From positions 1-42,124 of IMG/VR virus record IMGVR_UViG_2909282993_000003: a stretch of DNA of 42,124 nt; one strand, 5' to 3'. The notes beneath the pieces were generated by a model, which saw only the letters and a program-made list of their open reading frames with translations, made no database searches and was not told the origin of the DNA. Positions 1-42,124 of the stretch are shown piece by piece (within the stretch, counting starts at the first letter, position 1; the number at the start of each line of letters is the position of its first letter). The translations under genes and the position numbers were made by a program. This DNA comes from a virus. Its lineage: Duplodnaviria; Heunggongvirae; Uroviricota; Caudoviricetes.

Positions 1-1119
1 TCAAATAACCAACTTAACCCATTCCTGACCTCGAGTATCGTTATAGCGATCGGTGGTTGCCTGGACTTTATGTCCTAGTAATGTTTTTGTATCGATACCC
101 TGTGCACGGTACAGCCGTTCTGATAGAGAGCGTTGTTCATGAAATGTTGGCGGAGTTTTTCCTGCTGGTGGAATTATCCCAGCCAGATCCCGTGCTTTGG
201 CAAAGTAGTCGCTCAGGTTGTCTTTACTCATCGGCTTCGGTTGTTTCTGGTGCCGACTATGGATTAGATATGGACTTAATATTCTGTCTCGGCACCCATC
301 AATAACTTCTTTTAACGTTATCCCAATGGCATCACAGCGTAGTGTAAGCGGTAACGCCAGACGCATTCCGGTTTTTCCCTGGGTGATATGCAAGTGTTCG
401 TTCCACACATCTGAAAAACGCATGTGGCAAATGTCATCACGGCGCTGACCAGTAACAATCGCAAGAAGCATTGCGTTACGGATAAAGTGTTTTTCAGGCG
501 TTGCATTGTAAATTTTTTGCCAGTCTTCCATGGTGAGCCTGGCTCTGGTTACTTTAGGGATCGGTTTACGGGTAGCCTCCGGAGGATTCCATCCAGGAGG
601 AACTTCCCCTGCATGCTGTGCTTCTTTATAAATATCAACCCATAATCCACGATTTACTCTCGCTGTGCTGACCATGTCTTTATCCAGCCACTCATCCAGT
701 ATTAATGCAAAGTCTCTTACTTCCAGTTCTTTCAATGGGTGGTTTCCCAGACGGGAAACCAAGTATGCAGCCATTCGAGTTTTTTCTTTGTGAGTTGTAG
801 CTGCAATATCTCCATTTTTCAGTCGCGTGTCCTGTATTTTCAGATATCGATCAACCCATGCCTTTAATCTGATACCCCGACGTTTTGTTGCTGACGGACT
901 TTCATCAATTTTGCGCATGAAATATTCAGCTTCTGCTGCAGCTATTCGCTGATTGGCTGTGGAAGCGATTTTTTCTGCCTTACCTTTGTCTGTTCCGAGT
1001 CCGTGAAATTTTCCAGTCACAGGATTTTTATACTGGTAGTAAACTCTGCCAGTTCTGCGATCAAACTTTTCGTAAAGACCGGCTACGTCAGTGCTGTTTT
1101 TTCGTGGCCTCGGTGACAT
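1..1119 (-). CDS. int: Phage integrase, tyrosine recombinase family
   Basis: 372-aa ORF at the prophage edge; C-terminal region with the R..H..R..Y arrangement typical of lambda-type integrases; stop codon at window position 1-3; followed by an overlapping small xis-like gene. Confidence 0.9.
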   Translation of the reverse strand: MSPRPRKNSTDVAGLYEKFDRRTGRVYYQYKNPVTGKFHGLGTDKGKAEKIASTANQRIAAAEAEYFMRKIDESPSATKRRGIRLKAWVDRYLKIQDTRLKNGDIAATTHKEKTRMAAYLVSRLGNHPLKELEVRDFALILDEWLDKDMVSTARVNRGLWVDIYKEAQHAGEVPPGWNPPEATRKPIPKVTRARLTMEDWQKIYNATPEKHFIRNAMLLAIVTGQRRDDICHMRFSDVWNEHLHITQGKTGMRLALPLTLRCDAIGITLKEVIDGCRDRILSPYLIHSRHQKQPKPMSKDNLSDYFAKARDLAGIIPPAGKTPPTFHEQRSLSERLYRAQGIDTKTLLGHKVQATTDRYNDTRGQEWVKLVI

Positions 1120-1357
1120 GAGTTAAAATCTCCTTCAGTGCATCATCATCGCCAGTATGAATTTCCGGCGCAATTCCCGTTTCACCAGGCCCAACAAATA
1201 CTGCTCGGCGATCTATCAGCCAACGCCCACGAATTTTTTGTGGCCTTGGAACGATGTATCCTAGTTTTCCGTATTTCACCAGGGTAGTGTTTGTTATTGG
1301 GAGACTGAACCGTTTTGGTTTCCACTCGTCGAGCGTTATCAGGTACTGTTCGCTCAT
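1088..1357 (-). CDS. xis: Excisionase-like small basic protein
   Basis: Small ORF directly upstream of int and overlapping its start by about 30 nt, the canonical int-xis arrangement; ATG at 1357 preceded by a GGAG ribosome-binding site. No sequence-level match to lambda Xis recalled, so the call is positional. Confidence 0.5.
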   Translation of the reverse strand: MSEQYLITLDEWKPKRFSLPITNTTLVKYGKLGYIVPRPQKIRGRWLIDRRAVFVGPGETGIAPEIHTGDDDALKEILTHVTEATKKQH

Positions 1358-9130: not shown

Positions 9131-10030
9131 ATGATTGATCCACTTATTAGAAACTTACAGAGTGATATTGCACTACTCCAGCTTTATATCGCGCAACGCA
9201 AACAGGCAGGCTTTCATGACATGGAAAGAATAATTGAGTCATTGACCATCTTTATGTTTCGCGCGCTGAAAATGGGTGAACTGGTAAACATGAATCAGAT
9301 TAAAGTTAATTTTCCCGCCATTGATTTAGCTGATAATAAAAACATGATAGCAGTTCAAGTTACTACGAATGCAAGTCCAGCAAAAATTAAAAAAACTATC
9401 GAATCTTTTGATGAAACAAATGAAATAGGAGAGAGTCTGAAAGATAAATACTCTACTTTATATATTTTTGGTTTTTGTAAAGCCTCAAGATACCTAACTC
9501 CAAGTTATTGTAAAATAATCGACCCCAGCTATTTCGTGAATGAACTTTGCGATAAAGCAGATGAAGATATGGTCCAGGATATGATTGACGCCATTCGACG
9601 CCATCATGATTATACATCATTACATCCATGGAGTGATAAAGATTCACTCGAAATTATACTCAATATTATTAATCGCAATGCAATAAAACATCGGATGAGT
9701 TGCGAAGGCAGTCTGTCTGATATGCTCACTGGTTTAAAAGAAATTAATGAAGTAATTACAAAAGGAACAATTCAACGTAAGCAACGTTCAAAATCGATAT
9801 CTGACTTCAAAGATCAAAGCATGGTGAAATTTATGAGAGGTGTAATGGATGATTTGTCTGTTATTCAAGCCATAGTGAACAAATCTAAAGTTAACCAAGG
9901 TGATATGGTTTATATAAGCCATGAAGATATGATTAATATTGATAAATTAAAAGCTAAAATAGCAAGTGATTCATCAGAGATTGCAAGGCTAAATAATATT
10001 GATATAACACTAAATGTTGTTGATTTATAA
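9131..10030 (+). CDS. Hypothetical protein (299 aa) in AT-rich accessory island; possible abortive-infection/defence protein
   Basis: Long uninterrupted ORF in visibly AT-rich DNA, where random stops are frequent; AT-rich promoter-like upstream region; no NTPase motif; contains an Rx4H tetrad (RNAIKH) that may or may not be HEPN-like. Confidence 0.7.
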   Translation: MIDPLIRNLQSDIALLQLYIAQRKQAGFHDMERIIESLTIFMFRALKMGELVNMNQIKVNFPAIDLADNKNMIAVQVTTNASPAKIKKTIESFDETNEIGESLKDKYSTLYIFGFCKASRYLTPSYCKIIDPSYFVNELCDKADEDMVQDMIDAIRRHHDYTSLHPWSDKDSLEIILNIINRNAIKHRMSCEGSLSDMLTGLKEINEVITKGTIQRKQRSKSISDFKDQSMVKFMRGVMDDLSVIQAIVNKSKVNQGDMVYISHEDMINIDKLKAKIASDSSEIARLNNIDITLNVVDL

Positions 10031-10344
10031 TTGTCGATTTAGCAAAACAGAGAATGCTTTGAAAGTTTCACCGAGAAATATTTATTGTGAACCTCCTTAT
10101 TGTTTATCGACTTTTACTCTCCGCTCATTGCAGTACTGTCGGAGAAGGCTACTATGTACAAGAAGCAGCTAACATAAGCGAGCATCACTATTGATATTAG
10201 GAAGAGTATATAAAAACTTCATGCTGAACCTTACAAAAGTAGGTAAACCGGCAATGGCCTAAGTGGCAGGGTCATGTTGATCCGGCACTGCCGAGCTAAT
10301 AATTAACAAGCAAATCACTCTTTCTAATAATTTGTTGAAATAAA

Positions 10345-11004
10345 CTAAATATGTATATGTTTACCAACAACCACATATGAACTACCTGCTTTGCTCCATG
10401 ATTTTATTATTTCTAAATTATTATCTGAGCATATTTTACTTACAGTATCCACATCTAATAAACCATAGTAGAAAGCATTACGAGAGTTTTGGTATATATA
10501 CCCATGCAAATGTTTAATACCGCTCTCGTACCTCTTGAAATAAGAACTTTTGTATTGATTGACAATCAGTGCTTCACCATCACTCTTTAATAATTTTCTA
10601 ATCGCACTGAGGACTTTGTGAATTGTGGATTCACATGGAATTGCGGAAAGCACGTTTGCGCAAAGTATGAAATCATAATGATTTGTTATTTTATCTATAT
10701 TTTCATAAGAAACAATATTAGCATTCTTATAGTTATTTATCACGTAATCTGGAATCGTGGTTTGTACACCTCTGATAATTTGCACTCTTTCTAGTTGTCT
10801 TCTGGAATCTAAAAATGTCACAGTTTCAAATTTATTTACTAATTGTTCTGAATATCTAAGTTTTCCACATCCAAAATCAAGGGCATTGCCATTTTTATTA
10901 GTGCTTTCAATCTGTTTACAGAGATAGTTAGATGGCATAGTGTGCGGTTTCGCTGCATTTTCTGAACGTATGTTTATTCCATTTATTTTGTAATTCAAAA
11001 TCAA
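10345..11004 (-). CDS. Class I SAM-dependent methyltransferase-like protein
   Basis: 219-aa ORF with motif I ALDFGCGKL (GxGxG), downstream acidic and hydrophobic motif YDFILCANVL and LKSDGEALIV, consistent with a Rossmann-fold methyltransferase; AT-rich; 6-nt gap after the upstream membrane-protein gene. Confidence 0.8.
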   Translation of the reverse strand: MILNYKINGINIRSENAAKPHTMPSNYLCKQIESTNKNGNALDFGCGKLRYSEQLVNKFETVTFLDSRRQLERVQIIRGVQTTIPDYVINNYKNANIVSYENIDKITNHYDFILCANVLSAIPCESTIHKVLSAIRKLLKSDGEALIVNQYKSSYFKRYESGIKHLHGYIYQNSRNAFYYGLLDVDTVSKICSDNNLEIIKSWSKAGSSYVVVGKHIHI

Positions 11005-11010
11005 CCTCGT

Positions 11011-11718
11011 TTAAAAAATATTGTTATTGTTAAAGAATTCTTTTATTTTGCTATCAGGTATTTGTCTTACTTGGCTTTCTGTTCTTGGTTTAACTGATGC
11101 TATGAAAATAAGGAAGTCAAATGCGACAAGAGAAATAATCCACAACCAAAGATTAATTAAAGAGCCAGTAACAGAGAATATATTTGTTAATTTGGCGATA
11201 CTTATTATTAAAATAGTAACAAATGCGATTACTGTATGTTCAAAGAAAACCCAAAAGTAATAAACTTTGTTCCAGAAAAGTTCAACGTAATGTTTGTCTT
11301 TTAACTCTTTAACTTCTGGGTAATACAGTTTACTCATTACCTTGTGAGATTCTTCAGTAGTTAATTTTCTCGTAACGCCTGCAATTTTTGCTAATGGTTT
11401 AATAATTAAATGACTATCCCACATCTTCCTTATTTCAATAATTTTTGCTACATTATTATGTAGATCTAAAGCTCCACTAATTACTGACCAAAAAACTGAA
11501 GATGCAATTGGTAATATGCCAAAGGTTAATATCCATTTAATAAATTCCTCGTAGTCTTTAACGGGGGGGATATACTTGGCATTAATGCCAACCAATGGCA
11601 TGTAGCCATAAATGACTAATGATAGGTAAAATATAAATGTAGTAATAAAAGTCGCCTTATGGAGCATAGGCAACATTTCATTATAACTCTTTGGTGGTTC
11701 TAACATTTTACTCTCCAA
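11011..11718 (-). CDS. Integral membrane protein (about 4 predicted TM helices), first gene of an operon with the methyltransferase
   Basis: 235-aa ORF with four long hydrophobic segments (two N-terminal, two C-terminal) around a central soluble region of about 80 aa; AT-rich; same strand as, and tightly linked to, the methyltransferase. Confidence 0.75.
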   Translation of the reverse strand: MESKMLEPPKSYNEMLPMLHKATFITTFIFYLSLVIYGYMPLVGINAKYIPPVKDYEEFIKWILTFGILPIASSVFWSVISGALDLHNNVAKIIEIRKMWDSHLIIKPLAKIAGVTRKLTTEESHKVMSKLYYPEVKELKDKHYVELFWNKVYYFWVFFEHTVIAFVTILIISIAKLTNIFSVTGSLINLWLWIISLVAFDFLIFIASVKPRTESQVRQIPDSKIKEFFNNNNIF

Positions 11719-15739: not shown

Positions 15740-15815
15740 GGCCCTTTAGCTCAGTGGTGAGAGCGAGCGACTCATAATCGCCAGGTCGCTGGTTCAAATC
15801 CAGCAAGGGCCACCA
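15740..15815 (+). tRNA. tRNA with CAU anticodon (Ile2/ileX-like or Met)
   Basis: 76-nt cloverleaf folded by hand: acceptor GGCCCTT/AAGGGCC, D arm GCTC/GAGC, anticodon loop CTCATAA, T loop TTCAAAT, 3' CCA encoded; closely resembles recalled host ileX. Confidence 0.85.
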
Positions 15816-15816
15816 A

Positions 15817-15893
15817 CCGCCACTGGCTCATCAGGAAAGAGCGTCAACCCTTTAAGTTGAGTGTGCGAGGTTCGAGTCCCCGGTGGCGGTCCA
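15817..15893 (+). tRNA. tRNA-like gene, anticodon ambiguous (loop CCTTTAA; reads UUU with a non-canonical C33); possibly degenerate
   Basis: Acceptor CCGCCAC/GTGGCGG, D arm GCTC/GAGC, T loop TTCGAGT, CCA encoded; T stem has one mismatch; anticodon loop lacks the conserved U33. Confidence 0.5.
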
Positions 15894-15895
15894 GT

Positions 15896-15971
<76 letters not shown>

Positions 15972-15974
15972 TAT

Positions 15975-16049
<75 letters not shown>

Positions 16050-34738: not shown

Positions 34739-37700
34739 ATGGGTAAAGGCAGCAGTAAGGGGCATACCCCGCGCGAAGCGAAGGACAACCTGAAGTCCAC
34801 GCAGATGCTGAGCGTGATAGACGCCATCAGTGAAGGGCCGATTGAAGGTCCGGTGGACGGATTAAAAAGTGTGCTGCTGAACAGTACGCCAGTGCTGGAC
34901 AGTGAGGGGAATACCAATATCTCCGGTGTCACGGTGGTTTTCCGGGCAGGTGAGCAGGAGCAGACACCGCCGGAGGGATTTGAATCCTCCGGCTCCGAGA
35001 CGGTGCTGGGTACGGAAGTGAAGTACGACACGCCGATTACCCGGACCATCACGTCTGCAAACATCGACCGTCTGCGCTTTACCTTCGGTGTGCAGGCACT
35101 GGTGGAAACCACCTCAAAGGGGGACCGGAATCCGTCGGAAGTCCGCCTGCTGGTTCAGATACAGCGTAACGGTGGCTGGGTGACGGAAAAAGACATCACC
35201 ATTAAAGGCAAAACCACCTCACAGTATCTGGCATCGGTGGTGGTGGGTAACCTGCCGCCGCGCCCGTTTAATATCCGGATGCGCAGGATGACACCGGACA
35301 GCACCACAGACCAGCTGCAGAACAAAACGCTCTGGTCGTCATACACCGAAATCATCGATGTGAAACAGTGCTACCCGAACACGGCACTGGTCGGCGTGCA
35401 GGTGGACTCGGAACAGTTCGGCAGCCAGCAGGTGAGCCGTAATTATCATCTTCGCGGGCGCATTCTGCAGGTGCCGTCGAACTATAACCCGCAGACGCGG
35501 CAATACAGCGGTATCTGGGACGGAACGTTTAAGCCAGCATACAGCAACAACATGGCCTGGTGTCTGTGGGATATGCTGACCCATCCGCGCTACGGCATGG
35601 GGAAACGTCTTGGTGCGGCGGATGTGGATAAATGGGCGCTGTATGTCATCGGCCAGAATTGCGACCAGTCGGTGCCGGATGGCTTTGGTGGCACGGAGCC
35701 GCGCATCACCTGTAATGCGTACATGACCACGCAGCGCAAGGCGTGGGATGTGCTCAGTGATTTCTGCTCGGCGATGCGCTGTATGCCGGTATGGAACGGG
35801 CAGACGCTGACGTTCGTGCAGGACCGACGGTCGGATAAGGTGTGGACCTATAACCGCAGTAATGTGGTGATGCCGGATGATGGCGCGCCGTTCCGCTACA
35901 GCTTCAGCGCCCTGAAGGACCGCCATAATGCCGTTGAGGTGAACTGGATTGACCCGAATAATGGCTGGGAGACGGCGACAGAGCTTGTGGAGGACACGCA
36001 GGCCATTGCCCGTTACGGTCGTAACGTCACGAAGATGGATGCTTTTGGCTGTACCAGTCGGGGGCAGGCACACAGAGCCGGGCTGTGGCTGATTAAAACG
36101 GAACTGCTGGAAACGCAGATCGTGGACTTCAGCGTGGGTGCCGAAGGGCTTCGCCATGTGCCGGGCGATGTCATTGAAATCTGTGATGATGACTATGCCG
36201 GTATCAGCACCGGTGGTCGTGTGCTGGCGGTGAACAGCCAGACCCGGACGCTGACGCTCGACCGTGAAATCACGCTGCCATCCTCCGGCACCACGCTGAT
36301 AAGCCTGGTTGACGGACAGGGGAATCCGGTCAGCGTGGAGGTCCAGTCCGTCACCGACGGCGTGAAGGTAAAAGTAAGCCGTGTTCCTGACGGCGTTGCA
36401 GAATACAGCGTGTGGGGGCTGAAGCTGCCGACGCTGCGCCAGCGCCTGTTCCGCTGTGTGAGTATCCGTGAGAACGATGACGGCACGTATGCCATCACTG
36501 CCGTGCAGCATGTACCGGAAAAAGAGGCCATCGTGGATAACGGGGCGCACTTTGACGGCGACCAGAGCGGCACGGTGAACGGTGTCACGCCGCCAGCGGT
36601 GCAGCACCTGACTGCCGAAGTCACCGCAGACAGCGGGGAATATCAGGTGCTGGCGCGCTGGGACACGCCGAAGGTGGTGAAGGGGGTGAGCTTTATGCTT
36701 CGCCTGACCGTGGCAGCGGATGACGGCAGTGAGCGGCTGGTCAGCACGGCCCGGACGACGGAAACCACATACCGCTTCACGCAACTGGCGCTGGGAAACT
36801 ACAGGCTGACAGTCCGGGCAGTAAATGCGTGGGGGCAGCAGGGCGATCCGGCGTCGGTATCGTTCCGGATTGCCGCACCGGCAGCACCGTCGAGGATTGA
36901 GCTGACGCCGGGCTATTTTCAGATAACCGCCACGCCGCATCTTGCGGTTTATGATCCGACGGTACAGTTTGAGTTCTGGTTCTCGGAAAAGCGGATTGCT
37001 GATATCAGGCAGGTTGAAACCACAGCCCGCTACCTCGGCACGGGGCTGTACTGGATAGCCGCCAGTATCAATATCAAACCGGGCCATGATTATTACTTTT
37101 ATATCCGCAGTGTGAACACCGTTGGCAAATCGGCATTCGTGGAGGCCGTCGGTCGGGCGAGCGATGATGCGGAAGGTTACCTGGATTTTTTCAAAGGCCA
37201 TATAACCGAATCCCATCTCGGTAAAGAGCTGCTGGAAAAAGTAGACCTGACGGAGGATAACGCCAGCAGACTGGATGAGTTTTCGAAAGAGTGGAAGGAC
37301 GCTAACGATAAATGGAATGCTATGTGGGGCGTCAAAATTGAGCAGACCAAAGACGGCAAACATTATGTCGCGGGTATTGGCCTCAGCATGGAGGACACGG
37401 AGGAAGGCAAGCTGAGCCAGTTTCTGGTTGCCGCCAATCGTATCGCGTTTATTGACCCGGCAAACGGGAATGAAACGCCGATGTTTGTGGCGCAGGGCAA
37501 CCAGATATTCATGAACGACGTGTTCCTGAAACGCCTGACGGCTCCCACCATTACCAGCGGTGGAAATCCGCCGGCATTTTCCCTGACACCGGACGGAAAG
37601 TTGACCGCTAAAAATGCGGATATCAGCGGTAATGTGAATGCAAATTCAGGGACGCTCAACAACGTCACGATTAACGAGAACTGTCGGGTTCTGGGAAAAC

Positions 37701-38134
37701 TGTCCGCGAACCAGATTGAAGGCGATCTCGTTAAAACAGTGGGCAAAGCTTTCCCCCGGGACTCCCGTGCACCGGAGCGGTGGCCATCAGGGACCATTAC
37801 CGTCAGGGTTTATGACGATCAGCCGTTTGACCGGCAAATTGTTATTCCTGCGGTGGCTTTCAGCGGTGCCAGACATGAGCGGGAGAATAGCGATACTTAT
37901 TCGTCATGCCGCCTGATAGTGAAGAAAAACGGGGCTGAAATTTATAACCGAACGGCTCTGGATAATACGCTGATATACACGGGTGTTATTGATATGCCTG
38001 CAGGCAGTGGCGTAATGACACTGGAGTTTTCTGTATCAGCATGGTGGGTAAATGGTTGGTATCCCACAGCAAGTATCAGCGATTTGCTGGTTGTTGTGAT
38101 GAAGAAAGCCACTGCAGGCATCACGATTAGCTGA
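34739..38134 (+). CDS. Tail tip / host specificity protein J
   Basis: 1131-aa ORF in the lambda J position and of lambda J size (about 1132 aa); fibronectin-like repeats. Confidence 0.95.
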
Positions 38135-38153
38135 ATTTTATAACCCAGATACG

Positions 38154-38177
38154 GGCGCCAGAAATGGCGCCTTTTTT
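38154..38177 (+). terminator. Intrinsic terminator after J
   Basis: GGCGCC-AGAAAT-GGCGCC stem-loop followed by six T. Confidence 0.65.
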
Positions 38178-38201: not shown

Positions 38202-38801
38202 ATGCGTAAATTATGTGCTGTTATTCTGTCCGCAGTAGTCTGGCTGGTTGCCGCTGGTACGCCAGCGAGTGCAGCAGAGCATCAGTCCACACTAAGCTCC
38301 GGGTATATTCAGTCCCATACTGATATGCCCGGCAACGATGACCTGAAGGGCATTAACGTGAAATACCGTTATGAATTTACGGACACGCTGGGGCTGGTGA
38401 CGTCATTCAGTTATGCCGGAGACAAGAATCGCCAGATTACCCGTTACAGTGATACCCGCTGGCATGAAGATTCAGTGCGTAACCGCTGGTTCAGCATGAT
38501 GGCGGGGCCATCTGTGCGCGTGAATGAATGGTTCAGCGCGTATGCGATGGCAGGCGTGGCTTACAGCCGTGTGTCGACTTTTTCCGGGGATTATCTCCGC
38601 GTAACTGACAACAAGGGAAAAACGCACGACGTGCTGACCGGAAGTGATGACGCTCGCCACAGTAACACCTCTCTGGCGTGGGGAGCTGGCGTGCAGTTTA
38701 ACCCGACCGAATCCGTGGCCATTGATATTGCTTATGAAGGCTCCGGCAGTGGTGACTGGCGCACTGACGGTTTTATCGTGGGTGTCGGTTATAAATTCTG
38801 A
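38202..38801 (+). CDS. lom: Outer membrane protein Lom (Ail/Lom family)
   Basis: 199-aa ORF with signal peptide and C-terminal ...[25 protein letters not shown], matching the recalled lambda Lom C-terminus exactly; position after J. Confidence 0.9.
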
Positions 38802-38817: not shown

Positions 38818-38844
38818 AGCCCGCATATTCTGGCGGGCTTTTTT
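38818..38844 (+). terminator. Intrinsic terminator after lom
   Basis: AGCCCGC-ATATTCTG-GCGGGCT stem followed by six T. Confidence 0.6.
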
Positions 38845-38855
38845 GTGGGGTGGAT

Positions 38856-40685
38856 ATGGCAGCAGTAAAAATCTCAGGTGTGCTGAAAGATGGTGCGGGA
38901 AAACCAATACAGAACTGCACTATTCAACTGAAGGCAAAACGTAACAGCACAACGGTTGTGGTGAACACGGTGGCCTCAGAAAATCCGGATGAAGCTGGAC
39001 GTTACAGCATGGATGTTGAGTATGGTCAGTACAGCGTCACCCTGTTGGTTGAAGGTTTTCCGCCTTCACATGCCGGGACCATTACCGTTTATGAAGGTTC
39101 CAGACCAGGTACGCTGAATGATTTTCTGACTGCCCCCGACGAAGGCGACCTGAAGCCAGATGTGGTGAAACGATTTGAAGATTTGACAAGTCAGGCGCAA
39201 CGAAGTGCAGATGTGGCAATATCAGCGACAAAAAGGGCAGAAGCGTTACTGTCTGAAATGCAGGGAATAGCCGATAGTTTTCCCGGTTTGCGCTTTGAGA
39301 ACTTTGACGACATCGTGAGTCGTTGCACTACTGCAATGTTAAAACTGGAACAACCCGAGGTTGTTAATACATCAATATCTTTAAAAATAAAAGAAAATAT
39401 CGATTTTAATTATGTCGGTGCAGTTAACGGATATTGCGATATTTCTGAACCAGAAAAGTATAAAGTCGAAATGTATGCTTATACAACCGGAGAGTATTTT
39501 AACGGCGACGCTAATTTGAATAGTGACGGAACTTTCTATTTCAGACGTTGCTGGACGGGAGCAAAACAGTTTCGTCTTATTCGGATTGAGGATAATGTGT
39601 GGATCACAACGCTGGAGTTTCCACTGCTCATTCGTAGCTACTGGATGCCGGAGGACGCAGACCCCGAAGTGATCAGGGTGATGAAAGATCGGTGTTACAC
39701 GTATGACCAGGCGCTGGCAGCACTGGCGTTGATGGTTCAGCGACATGAGGCTGTAGAAAGATACGTTGCGGGCTTGTGTGCGCTTGTTGATGAAAACGGT
39801 GGAGTAAAGTTTTTTGTTAACAGGCTGTCTGCCATGTCACCGCGTACCTATTACCGCTTGGGCAATGCGGCATGGGTTTATTATGCTCTTGCTTTCTATC
39901 TGGAGAAGTATCCGGACGGTACTCAGACTGCGCGGGTCAGAGAAAAACTATTGGCAGGCATTGCCTGGCTGGATACTTTTCTGGTGAGCACACCAGGCGA
40001 CCTGCGTGAAGGCCTGTATAAAGGGGGGCAGGGGCGTTATGTGGACGGCAATTTTGATGAAACTTTTGTCGCCGAATGGTGCGCACTGGAGCATAACGTT
40101 GATATCTGGTTTTTGTTTGAACTGATGGGACGGCTGGGATTTGACGGTTTCAGTGAGCGGGCTGACAGGCTGGCAAAGAGCATCATCAGAGGTCTGTGGG
40201 TGGAAGATGAAGGCCGATTTCGACAGGGGGTTCATTCAACCCACTATGACAACGCAGCGGCGCTGGATCAGTCTTCCTGGGGCGGATTGTTTGTTGCCAA
40301 TATTGATGCTGAGAAAGCGGCTAAGTGCCGAAAATATATGGGGCGTTTTTTATTTGGTACGAGGGAAACCACGGGTTACACACCGTACCACCCTGATTAT
40401 GGTTATAGTGGTCACAGCCGTGGCGTGTGGGTGGAAGGAACGGCAGGTGTGGCACTTTTTGAGCGCAAGCTGGGTAATGAGCTGAATGCGGTGAATCTTG
40501 TGGCAGCAATGGCTCCACTTTTTAATGAGTACGGTTATCGTGATTCTTGCGATGACCCGGCATACGATGTGCTGCCTTCCTGGTCATCAACAACAAACAC
40601 TGCCTGGATCATTCTGGCTGTAAAGCCAGATAATTTCTGGTTAGTGGATTCGCCAGAAATGGATGTAGGGACAATCCGCTATTGA
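38856..40685 (+). CDS. Side tail fibre protein: lambda Stf-like N-terminal anchor fused to a non-lambda C-terminal domain (possible alpha/alpha-barrel glycosidase-like depolymerase)
   Basis: First about 100 residues (MAAVKISGVLKDGAGKPIQNCTIQLKAKRNSTTVVVNTV...YGQYSVTLLVEGFPPSHAGTITVYE) nearly match recalled lambda Stf; the rest lacks the Stf Ala/Ser-rich repeats and is rich in Trp/Tyr/Phe motifs (AWVYYALAFYL, WCALEHNVDIWFLFELMG, SSWGGLFVA); an AT-rich stretch at about 39370-39550 marks a mosaic junction. Confidence 0.8.
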   Translation: MAAVKISGVLKDGAGKPIQNCTIQLKAKRNSTTVVVNTVASENPDEAGRYSMDVEYGQYSVTLLVEGFPPSHAGTITVYEGSRPGTLNDFLTAPDEGDLKPDVVKRFEDLTSQAQRSADVAISATKRAEALLSEMQGIADSFPGLRFENFDDIVSRCTTAMLKLEQPEVVNTSISLKIKENIDFNYVGAVNGYCDISEPEKYKVEMYAYTTGEYFNGDANLNSDGTFYFRRCWTGAKQFRLIRIEDNVWITTLEFPLLIRSYWMPEDADPEVIRVMKDRCYTYDQALAALALMVQRHEAVERYVAGLCALVDENGGVKFFVNRLSAMSPRTYYRLGNAAWVYYALAFYLEKYPDGTQTARVREKLLAGIAWLDTFLVSTPGDLREGLYKGGQGRYVDGNFDETFVAEWCALEHNVDIWFLFELMGRLGFDGFSERADRLAKSIIRGLWVEDEGRFRQGVHSTHYDNAAALDQSSWGGLFVANIDAEKAAKCRKYMGRFLFGTRETTGYTPYHPDYGYSGHSRGVWVEGTAGVALFERKLGNELNAVNLVAAMAPLFNEYGYRDSCDDPAYDVLPSWSSTTNTAWIILAVKPDNFWLVDSPEMDVGTIRY

Positions 40686-40946
40686 CTCTCTTGTTGTTTG
40701 ATAAACCGACAAAAGGATAAATATCAGCGATCCATTCTGTGCTGTTTGATTGTGCGCTCCCCGCTCAGAATTGCGCGTCAATTAGCCTATAAAAAATCGC
40801 GAAGATACAATACGTACTTCATTGCGCTTGAACACCCCAGGCATAATATCGCTGGATTGAAATGTTCGGACATGGCAAGCGTATGAATATGCCGTGGTGG
40901 GGCGTGCCTGCGAATCTGGCTGTTGGTTAATCGTGGGTGAAAAAGG

Positions 40947-41078
40947 TGAGCAGTATATGCAACGAAGGAGGAAACATCATTGCTGGCGGCATGGAAGGCA
41001 TGCAGGGTGTTGCTGAACCGTGTTGATACATCAACTGCACCTGATATTGAGTGGCCTACGAACCCTGTCAGGGAGTAA
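40947..41078 (+). pseudogene. Tail fibre assembly (tfa) 3'-terminal remnant, about 43 codons
   Basis: Translation ...[36 protein letters not shown] resembles the conserved Tfa C-terminus; no N-terminal part upstream. Confidence 0.5.
40968..41057 (+). repeat. Imperfect direct repeat, copy A (tfa 3' end); copy B at about 42013-42103
   Basis: About 90 bp with long identical runs (TGTTGCTGAACCGTGTTGATACATCAAC...GCACCTGATATTGAGTGGCC) shared with the window's last 110 bp; the two copies flank the methyltransferase gene. Confidence 0.7.
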
Positions 41079-41132
41079 TCATTGGGATTATGCCGCAGCA
41101 CGTCGTGCGCAAGAACGTGCTGCGGCTGGATG

Positions 41133-41801
41133 CTATTTTTTCCCTGAAGCGGAAAACATTACTACAGTACCTTTAATCTTGGTTTTAACATTCTCGAAAT
41201 GCTCTGAGAGTATATGTGTTAAGCCTTCTTCGGAATCTTTTGTGTTTGAAAAGATGCCTTTTTGATTGTAAATGCGCATCAGTTTTTGACCGAAGCTATT
41301 GTGCACAACGCCGTCACCAAGAATTGTGGCTCCGTATAGAGTTCCATCGTCAGTTAAGGCCTGCGCCGCATTGCGTATTACACAGCTTTTTGTAGATATA
41401 TTTCCAGGCAGGCAGTGAAGAAGGTAAAACATGGAAATGGAATCAAATTGACCATGTAATGCCGCGGGATAAGGTTCAAAAACATCATGGCTAATTTTAT
41501 GTTTAATTTTTGATTCCCCAGCCCTTGTCGATGCCGCGTTCAGGCTAGCTTCGTTCAAATCCATTAAAGATATCAGACTACTCTCAGGTACGTGAGTAAG
41601 GTAAAACCCAGTTCCAACACCAATATCCAGATGGTTGTTACCTAAATGTTCCAGAAAGTGTGGAAGAAGGTGTTCCTTTGTAGGACATCCCCATGCAAGC
41701 CGATTTGATACTCCCAAAACCCACCAGTCATAAAGCTTTAGGGTAAGTGGTGTGTAAATTTTAGCCCCATCATCTGTGTTTTTTTTCATTAATTTCACCA
41801 T
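41133..41801 (-). CDS. Class I SAM-dependent methyltransferase (moron at the tail-fibre end)
   Basis: 222-aa ORF with motif I HLDIGVGTGFYL and downstream Rossmann-type motifs; opposite strand to the tail genes; AT-richer than the flanks. Confidence 0.8.
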   Translation of the reverse strand: MVKLMKKNTDDGAKIYTPLTLKLYDWWVLGVSNRLAWGCPTKEHLLPHFLEHLGNNHLDIGVGTGFYLTHVPESSLISLMDLNEASLNAASTRAGESKIKHKISHDVFEPYPAALHGQFDSISMFYLLHCLPGNISTKSCVIRNAAQALTDDGTLYGATILGDGVVHNSFGQKLMRIYNQKGIFSNTKDSEEGLTHILSEHFENVKTKIKGTVVMFSASGKK

Positions 41802-41857
41802 GTTATAGTTTTATTTGTGAATTAAATCAATTGTGGCGATGAATTACAAGGGGTTAA

Positions 41858-42124
41858 ATGCTGCCGCAGCATAGCGATATTGAAATAGCCTGGTATGCTT
41901 CGATACAGCAGGAGCCGAATGGCTGGAAGACCGTCACCACACAGTTCTACATCCAGGAATTCAGTGAGCATATTGCGCCACTTCAGGATGCTGTAGATCT
42001 GGAGATCGCAACGGAGGAAGAAAACTCGTTGCTGGAAGCCTGGAAGAAGTATCGGGTGTTGCTGAACCGTGTTGATACATCAACCGCACCTGATATTGAG
42101 TGGCCGACTTCACCTGCAGAGTAA
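41858..42124 (+). CDS. Tail fibre assembly protein, C-terminal portion (likely 5'-truncated tfa)
   Basis: 88-aa ORF ending ...[36 protein letters not shown], the conserved Tfa C-terminus; shorter than a typical Tfa (about 190 aa). Confidence 0.6.

Follow-up and report, generated by a model that had tools for sequence, protein, structure and literature searches.

The 42,124-base stretch of DNA analysed here (the window) is identical to positions 4754020-4796143 of the chromosome of Escherichia coli F8111-1SC3 (NZ_CP024269.1; O169:H41 group). It represents an apparently complete E. coli O169:H41 prophage of the lambdoid type, which starts with an integrase gene, continues with head and lambda-type tail genes, and ends next to potB. 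The gene order J-lom-fibre gene places the ORF under study in the Stf slot of the lambda-type tail module (Table 1). This ORF has zero internal stops and an alternative GTG start at position 38850. E. coli O169:H41 genomes carry it unchanged (100% identity), and a version with 99.4% identity, labelled 'tail protein', is present in phiSTEC1575-Stx2k, a deposited phage genome. RefSeq/PGAP annotates only positions 38856-39272, as a pseudogene ('incomplete; missing C-terminus'), with the remainder left bare; strain TW10690 shows a split annotation, consisting of a 417-bp N-terminal pseudogene and a separate CDS that covers the last ~215 codons, and in many other genomes a protein of 608-609 aa is annotated intact. 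The pseudogene label leaves ~1.4 kb, including the C-terminal module described below, without any annotated feature in many genomes, and can mislead both prophage-intactness calls and surveys of receptor-binding proteins.

Table 1. Features of the fibre gene, its product, and the flanking regions (window coordinates)
Feature	Residues	Coordinates	Strand	Evidence or remark
Integrase		2-1120	-	Start of the prophage
J		34739-38134		Upstream of lom
lom		38202-38801		Between J and the fibre gene
Terminator-like hairpin		38818..38844	+	7-bp GC-rich stem, then T run; between lom and the fibre gene; pattern scan
Chimeric side tail fibre gene, complete	609 aa	38856..40685	+	ATG 38856 to stop 40685
N-terminal virion anchor (lambda Stf N-terminal domain)	3-128	38862..39239	+	PF08400, E 2e-62
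Single long alpha-helix	101-141	39156..39278	+	AlphaFold2 full-length monomer, pLDDT 54-65
Exchangeable C-terminal module	146-609	39291..40682	+	BLASTP boundary, AlphaFold2, PHROGs
Low-GC island, first part of the module	146-230	39291..39545	+	GC 0.353 vs 0.49-0.51 on flanks
Predicted beta-sandwich subdomain	~175-254	39378..39617	+	DSSP strands, AlphaFold2 models
Predicted (alpha/alpha)6 barrel	~270-600	39663..40655	+	AlphaFold2 models
Motif E412-H413-N-V-D416 (family consensus STEHNxD)	412-416	40089..40103	+	Start of the third inner helix
Motif W525-V-E527-G528 (family consensus VWxEG)	525-528	40428..40439	+	Start of the fifth inner helix
Small ORF, TTG start	62 aa	40698..40886	+	Shortened form of a 99-aa 'hypothetical protein' in phiSTEC1575-Stx2k
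First 3' remnant of tfa		40959..41078	+	RefSeq pseudogene annotation
Class I SAM-dependent methyltransferase		41133..41801	-	Pfam Methyltransf_12/23/25; phrog_2132; cargo, not part of the fibre
Second tfa remnant, Tfa C-terminal part	88 aa	41858..42124	+	PF02413 E 3.5e-26, profile positions 75-131 only

The 62-aa ORF that follows the fibre gene differs from the corresponding phiSTEC1575-Stx2k DNA by a 1-nt indel and a 62-nt deletion. It moves together with the module and is probably non-functional here; the idea that it encodes a dedicated chaperone was rejected because the ORF is frameshifted and shortened with respect to its phiSTEC1575 counterpart. Approximately 210 nt past the fibre stop codon are common to phiSTEC1575-Stx2k, and from ~40896 onward the sequence is that of a common lambdoid island. 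No intact tfa is present downstream of the fibre gene, where only two 3' remnants occur, the second of which (start 41858/41951) matches phrog_2341 over its full length. Phages ev243, 2G7b, and PhiR49_1 share this arrangement of a tfa fragment, a methyltransferase gene and another tfa fragment. The preliminary description of this DNA had regarded the loss of tfa as fitting the new fibre head: an intact tfa is indeed absent, which fits a globular head, but this loss is specific to the gene only in part: the tfa-flanked methyltransferase island is common in lambdoid phages.

An Stf anchor joined to an exchangeable module

Within the PF08400 anchor, residues 3-93 align with residues 2-92 of lambda Stf (PDB 9e7m) at 81 of 91 positions (89% identity; E 9e-49), and the strands in the AlphaFold2 full-length model delimit an anchor beta-sandwich at residues 4-78. 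At the DNA level, similarity to lambda-like phages stops at base 272 of the query, i.e., at window position 39127. The long helix predicted at residues 101-141 is probably a trimeric coiled-coil neck, by analogy with lambda Stf; its low confidence in the monomer model is expected for a coiled coil.

The left boundary of the module is defined by two observations that coincide. Similarity to differently anchored relatives started at residue 146/147 in all such BLASTP comparisons (7/7), and residue 146 is also the left edge of the low-GC island, which thus marks the left edge of the exchangeable module. The module matches PHROGs 13714, 4128, and 7032, each annotated 'tail fiber', whereas searches with residues 131-609 retrieved no curated family from Pfam or NCBIfam and no PDB entry either by sequence or by profile. 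PF03406 and other fibre repeats are absent, the predicted model is globular, and F, W, and Y together account for 14.3% of residues 261-609 versus 6.4% of residues 1-94. The module arrived as a cassette extending from ~39291 to ~40895, which took the place of the shaft and tip of Stf and of most of tfa.

These data bear out the chimera put forward in the preliminary description, i.e., an Stf anchor joined to an unrelated, aromatic-rich C-terminal part that lacks the Stf shaft and fibrous tip, with PF08400 at residues 3-128 and another fold at 146-609. Two of its details needed adjustment. The first ~100 residues, described as nearly identical to lambda Stf, do form an Stf anchor, but at 89% identity the wording was slightly generous. 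Likewise, the compositional break reported at ~39370-39550 is real, but its sharp edge lies at nt 39291, so that the junction had been set ~80-250 nt too far to the right.

Predicted fold and candidate catalytic residues

AlphaFold2 modelled residues 131-609 from an 80-sequence alignment with a pLDDT of 95.9 and a pTM of 0.94, and the full-length protein with a pLDDT of 91.0. According to these models, the module almost certainly adopts a glycoside hydrolase-like fold of the clan GH-L type, in which a beta-sandwich is combined with an (alpha/alpha)6 barrel whose inner helices span residues 282-294, 335-351, 411-426, 470-481, 526-538, and 579-589 in the full-length model. The best structural neighbours of the barrel were glycoside hydrolases, at identities of 6-15%, and Foldseek gave the same superfold; the search of a viral fold library yielded one real relative only, F9VHN7. 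The alpha/alpha-barrel, glycosidase-like C terminus anticipated from the sequence was therefore recovered in the models, which display no beta-structured fibre tip devoid of a pocket; the companion search of the C-terminal part for a glycosidase family returned no curated GH match in Pfam or NCBIfam.

An exhaustive search collected 491 representative clusters at E values up to 0.001, and conservation was assessed on an alignment of 80 members whose identity to the query ranges over 23-88%. Residues Y283, G336, E412, L470, D471, E527, and G528 are invariant across the 80 sequences, and R260, S261, D284, W408, H413, D416, W448, D465, W475, W525, and W584 are conserved in at least 90% of them. 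In the AlphaFold2 models, the conserved acidic and aromatic pocket residues lie where the six inner helices begin, at their N-terminal tips, which is where the active-site funnel of (alpha/alpha)6 barrels sits. The E412-H413-N-V-D416 motif (E412 in 80/80 sequences, H413 in 78/80, and D416 in 79/80) is a candidate general acid region. In the W525-V-E527-G528 motif, with E527 and G528 kept in 80/80 sequences, E527 is a candidate general base that occupies the same relative position along the barrel as Glu262 of MmpH and may be its equivalent. As judged by position along the barrel only, D284 or E412 would be the likely acid. The catalytic base of MmpH (345 residues) is Glu262 and its acid is Asp47 or Asp50, located in the first hairpin, whereas in GH15 glucodextranase these roles are played by Glu628 (base) and Glu430 (acid) (PMC9883506). 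A thioester (TED-like) domain was also considered and discarded, because the Cys of C409-A-L-E412 is not conserved and the family consensus at this site reads S-T-E-H-N.

Relatives of the module in phages and bacteria

The same module is joined to two divergent PF08400 anchors, to PF12571, PF18668, and PF25613, and to a P1 S-like fibre with PF03406; the anchors bearing it include P2/Mu-like, P1 S-like, and tailspike types. In more distant relatives, the fusion partners are T4 gp5 C-terminal spike repeats, a T7-type nozzle protein, and a CBM5/12 module. The genomic contexts inspected comprised a P2/Mu-like baseplate module, where the gene encodes a second fibre, a siphovirus prophage inserted at the same potB site, and a P1-like tail fibre operon, and in none of them does a Caudo_TAP chaperone gene directly follow the module. 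The homologue in jumbo phage ph0011 is anchorless and lies outside a tail gene cluster, indicating that some members of the family are not virion-bound. Overall, the domain was found in 16 of 50,697 phage records and the module in 54 of 5,426 complete E. coli genomes. The bacterial genome that hosts the window carries a second copy of the module (P0036) at the Rac site; comparison of the two copies over 464 codons gave a dN/dS of 0.076 at a dS of 0.90, which indicates that the protein is maintained by strong purifying selection.

Bacterial chromosomes encode stand-alone relatives of 350-430 aa, with which the phage module shares only ~25-33% identity and whose names say little ('hypothetical' and, in one case, an automatically assigned 'lanthionine synthetase-like'). 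The stand-alone gene clustered with a gene for a ~500-aa processive GT2 synthase in four of the five loci that were looked at; one Myxococcota operon combines the homologue with genes for a GT2, a kinase, a regulator, and a HEAT protein. A scan of 80 stand-alone loci, taken from one genome per species after a locus search with a 6-sequence alignment, detected a PgaC/IcaA-like processive GT2 synthase within the stretch of DNA covered in 47/80, although these loci are mostly from Myxococcota and hence not independent. The synthase gene was at most 2 kb away in 41 loci, and on the same strand in 39 of these. The best NCBIfam match of the synthases was PgaC/IcaA, far below its cut-off. Besides Myxococcota, the pairing is seen in Actinomycetota, Spirochaetota, and Acidobacteriota. 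A glycanase, e.g., BcsZ or PssZ, is a typical component of synthase-dependent exopolysaccharide operons; the observed pairing thus supports the view that the family cleaves polysaccharides.

Proposed function and comparison with known systems

We favour, with a probability of roughly 0.6, the reading that the gene encodes an Stf-anchored side tail fibre in which a glycosidase-like enzyme head replaces the shaft and the tip. A receptor-binding role of this head is highly probable; an enzymatic reading has good support from fold and family, and catalysis itself is on balance probable. The anchor (residues 3-128) fixes the fibre to the tail tip. In the mechanism that we propose, helix 101-141 would form a trimeric coiled coil whose three globular heads are independent of one another, like those of endosialidase-type tailspikes, with each head folding without the Tfa chaperone. 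In the funnel at the mouth of its barrel, every head would bind a polysaccharide of the host surface and cleave its glycosidic bonds by acid/base catalysis, with E527 as the likely base and E412 or D284 as the likely acid. The phage would thereby adsorb reversibly and clear the glycan layer locally before J meets its outer-membrane receptor.

As to the substrate, capsule, O-antigen, and colanic acid, all of them named in the preliminary description, are guesses. The module is present at nucleotide identities of at least 99.3% in strains of serotypes O169:H41, O27:H7, O6:H16, and APEC O18, and this near identity across four O types weakly suggests a target independent of the O-antigen; it carries little weight, since infection by lambda-type phages is possible in the absence of Stf. 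A more specific version, which we regard as distinctly unlikely, makes the module the phage branch of a new GH family whose bacterial members would be PgaC-like exopolysaccharide glycanases, with a serotype-independent target in E. coli (PNAG, cellulose, or ECA). Such a target would explain the near-identical head in O169, O27, O6, and O18 strains.

Among the alternatives, the head may be a non-catalytic, lectin-like receptor-binding domain whose (alpha/alpha)6 funnel binds a sugar epitope without cutting it. This is unlikely. An enzymatic role is favoured by the invariant acids at the barrel mouth, the shuffling of anchors, the purifying selection, and the relatives encoded in polysaccharide-synthase operons. 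No characterised family member was found in the literature searched. Very unlikely is a head that acts as a polysaccharide lyase or as another carbohydrate-modifying enzyme (of the epimerase or isomerase type) rather than as a hydrolase. The fibre protein has no curated GH family by sequence, with faint MGH1-like (GH63-type) matches in 3/80 relatives; an AGE-type epimerase was rejected, as a single His is conserved across the family, which argues against this assignment, and the combination of two catalytic His residues and a Pfam GlcNAc_2-epim match that defines the AGE superfamily was not found. Finally, the RefSeq view of a decaying remnant, in which unrelated DNA of a non-coding or junk nature lies behind a truncated Stf pseudogene, to which the PGAP 'incomplete' call on 38856-39272, the bare module in many genomes, and the split annotation of TW10690 would lend themselves, is rejected in the face of a frame open across 609 codons, a dN/dS of 0.076 over 464 codons at a dS of 0.9, a very confident AlphaFold2 model of the module, and intact annotations of 608-609 aa in many genomes and in one deposited phage genome.

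If the enzyme head that we favour is active, it would represent a new glycoside hydrolase family of 491 representative clusters devoid of a Pfam, NCBIfam, or solved-structure sequence relative. Members of this family are borne by phage tails of many kinds and are also encoded in exopolysaccharide operons of bacteria. The family would widen the set of phage depolymerase folds. The module would also provide a compact, chaperone-independent head for engineering the host range of lambda-type phages, and an enzyme that attacks a conserved surface or biofilm glycan of E. coli could be obtained from it.

Clan GH-L enzymes (GH15 glucodextranase, isomaltose glucohydrolase, and dextran dextrinase, as well as the endo-alpha-1,4-mannosidase MmpH) are related to the module in fold, at identities of 9-13%, and the beta-sandwich that precedes the (alpha/alpha)6 barrel in bacterial GH15/clan GH-L proteins is predicted in the module too. 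GH15 itself (PF00723) was not matched by the fibre at E values up to 0.1, or by any of the 80 relatives at E values up to 10, and the GH63/MGH1-like group ('glucosidase family protein' in RefSeq) gave no above-threshold match to Pfam MGH1-like_GH or Glyco_hydro_63. The operon glycanases BcsZ (cellulose) and PssZ (Listeria) belong to GH8, unlike the module family. With lambda Stf, the fibre shares the PF08400 anchor (89% over residues 3-93), the slot after J and lom, and a helical segment behind the anchor, but it has no Ala/Ser-rich shaft, PF03406 repeats, fibrous tip, or intact downstream tfa, and its distal 464 residues are predicted to form a globular beta-sandwich and (alpha/alpha)6 barrel instead. 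The fibre is thus a member of the Stf family by its anchor only, and not by shaft, tip, or chaperone features. Depolymerase tailspikes (K1 endosialidases and P22/HK620 endorhamnosidases) likewise combine a conserved anchor with an exchangeable C-terminal domain of the carbohydrate-active type, and there too the same head moves among anchors and phage types; they differ in having a beta-helix or a beta-propeller where an (alpha/alpha)6 barrel is predicted here. Alpha/alpha toroids have been noted as an infrequent fold among predicted depolymerases of phages (11/984; PMC11326577), accounting for 29 domains, or <1%, in prophages (PMC12491483). Collectively, this comparison leaves the enzyme family as the only uncharacterised element of the fibre, its design, an anchor bearing an enzymatic head, being already known.

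Annotation and immediate surroundings of the fibre gene

The intact 609-codon fibre gene (window 38856-40685) is recorded in the RefSeq/PGAP annotation as a 417-bp pseudogene "missing C-terminus" (feature 38856-39272), and its remaining ~1.4 kb carries no RefSeq/PGAP annotation in the window. Many other complete genomes likewise lack any annotated feature over the module DNA. The annotation of strain TW10690 covers only the last ~215 codons of the module, under the product name "glucosidase family protein."

Upstream of the fibre gene, two terminator-like hairpins were observed, against 0.7 expected from shuffles (see the table). A small ORF 3′ of the fibre gene (window 40698-40886) is common to the window and the deposited phage genome phiSTEC1575-Stx2k. 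The phage version encodes a 99-aa "hypothetical protein." The window ORF is the shorter of the two, owing to a 1-nt indel and a deletion of 62 nt. Farther downstream (window 40959-42124), a class I SAM-dependent methyltransferase gene on the opposite strand (41133-41801) is located between two 3′ fragments of the tail fibre assembly chaperone gene tfa, and this tfa-fragment/methyltransferase island is commonly found among lambdoid phages. The 88-aa ORF at 41858-42124 has a full-length match to PHROG 2341 and is thus one of a recurrent class of short Tfa-C-terminal proteins.

Elsewhere in the prophage, the annotation places four clustered tRNA genes (Ile, Lys, Thr, and Gly; window 15740-16049) 3′ of the gene for the Q antiterminator. 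The early region (window 9132-11425) has Qin/Rac-like cargo genes, namely hokD, dicB/ydfABCD, and genes for a SMEK-domain protein and for a second SAM-dependent methyltransferase of class I on the opposite strand.

Hairpins near the fibre gene and additional module-bearing genes
Feature	Position	Size and identity	Context
Terminator-like hairpin	window 38153-38172		3′ of J
Terminator-like hairpin	window 38818-38839		3′ of lom, directly 5′ of the fibre gene
Second fibre copy, P0036	L012 6001-7827 (NZ_CP024269.1 163077-164903)	608 aa	Same genome as the window
Anchor-less homologue	L014 4926-6410	494 aa, 56% identity	Escherichia phage ph0011, jumbo phage, 348 kb

The head module in a second fibre and in other phages

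P0036, the second module-bearing fibre of the host genome, has a divergent version of the PF08400 anchor and resides at a Rac-type site adjoining uspF/ompN/ydbK. A Caudo_TAP gene and a tail module of the Baseplate_J type precede it. Its beta-sandwich part is much more similar to that of the window fibre (dS, 0.29) than is the barrel (dS, 1.26), a disparity in sequence divergence that suggests a recent partial exchange.

In a different siphovirus prophage, the same head module is joined to a PF18668 tailspike-type anchor (L007 5001-6911); that prophage and the window prophage have one integration site in common, potB/potA/pepT/roxA. The ph0011 homologue is flanked by small hypothetical genes rather than placed in a tail cluster, and it may represent a soluble form of the predicted enzyme.

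Stand-alone bacterial relatives

Stand-alone bacterial relatives of the module (loci L016, L017, L019, L020, and L021-L100) directly adjoin genes for PgaC/IcaA-like processive GT2 synthases. Frequent further members of these clusters are a histidine kinase, a response regulator, and a HEAT-repeat protein of ~1200 aa. The arrangement has the appearance of a synthase-dependent exopolysaccharide cluster not described before, present mainly in Myxococcota.
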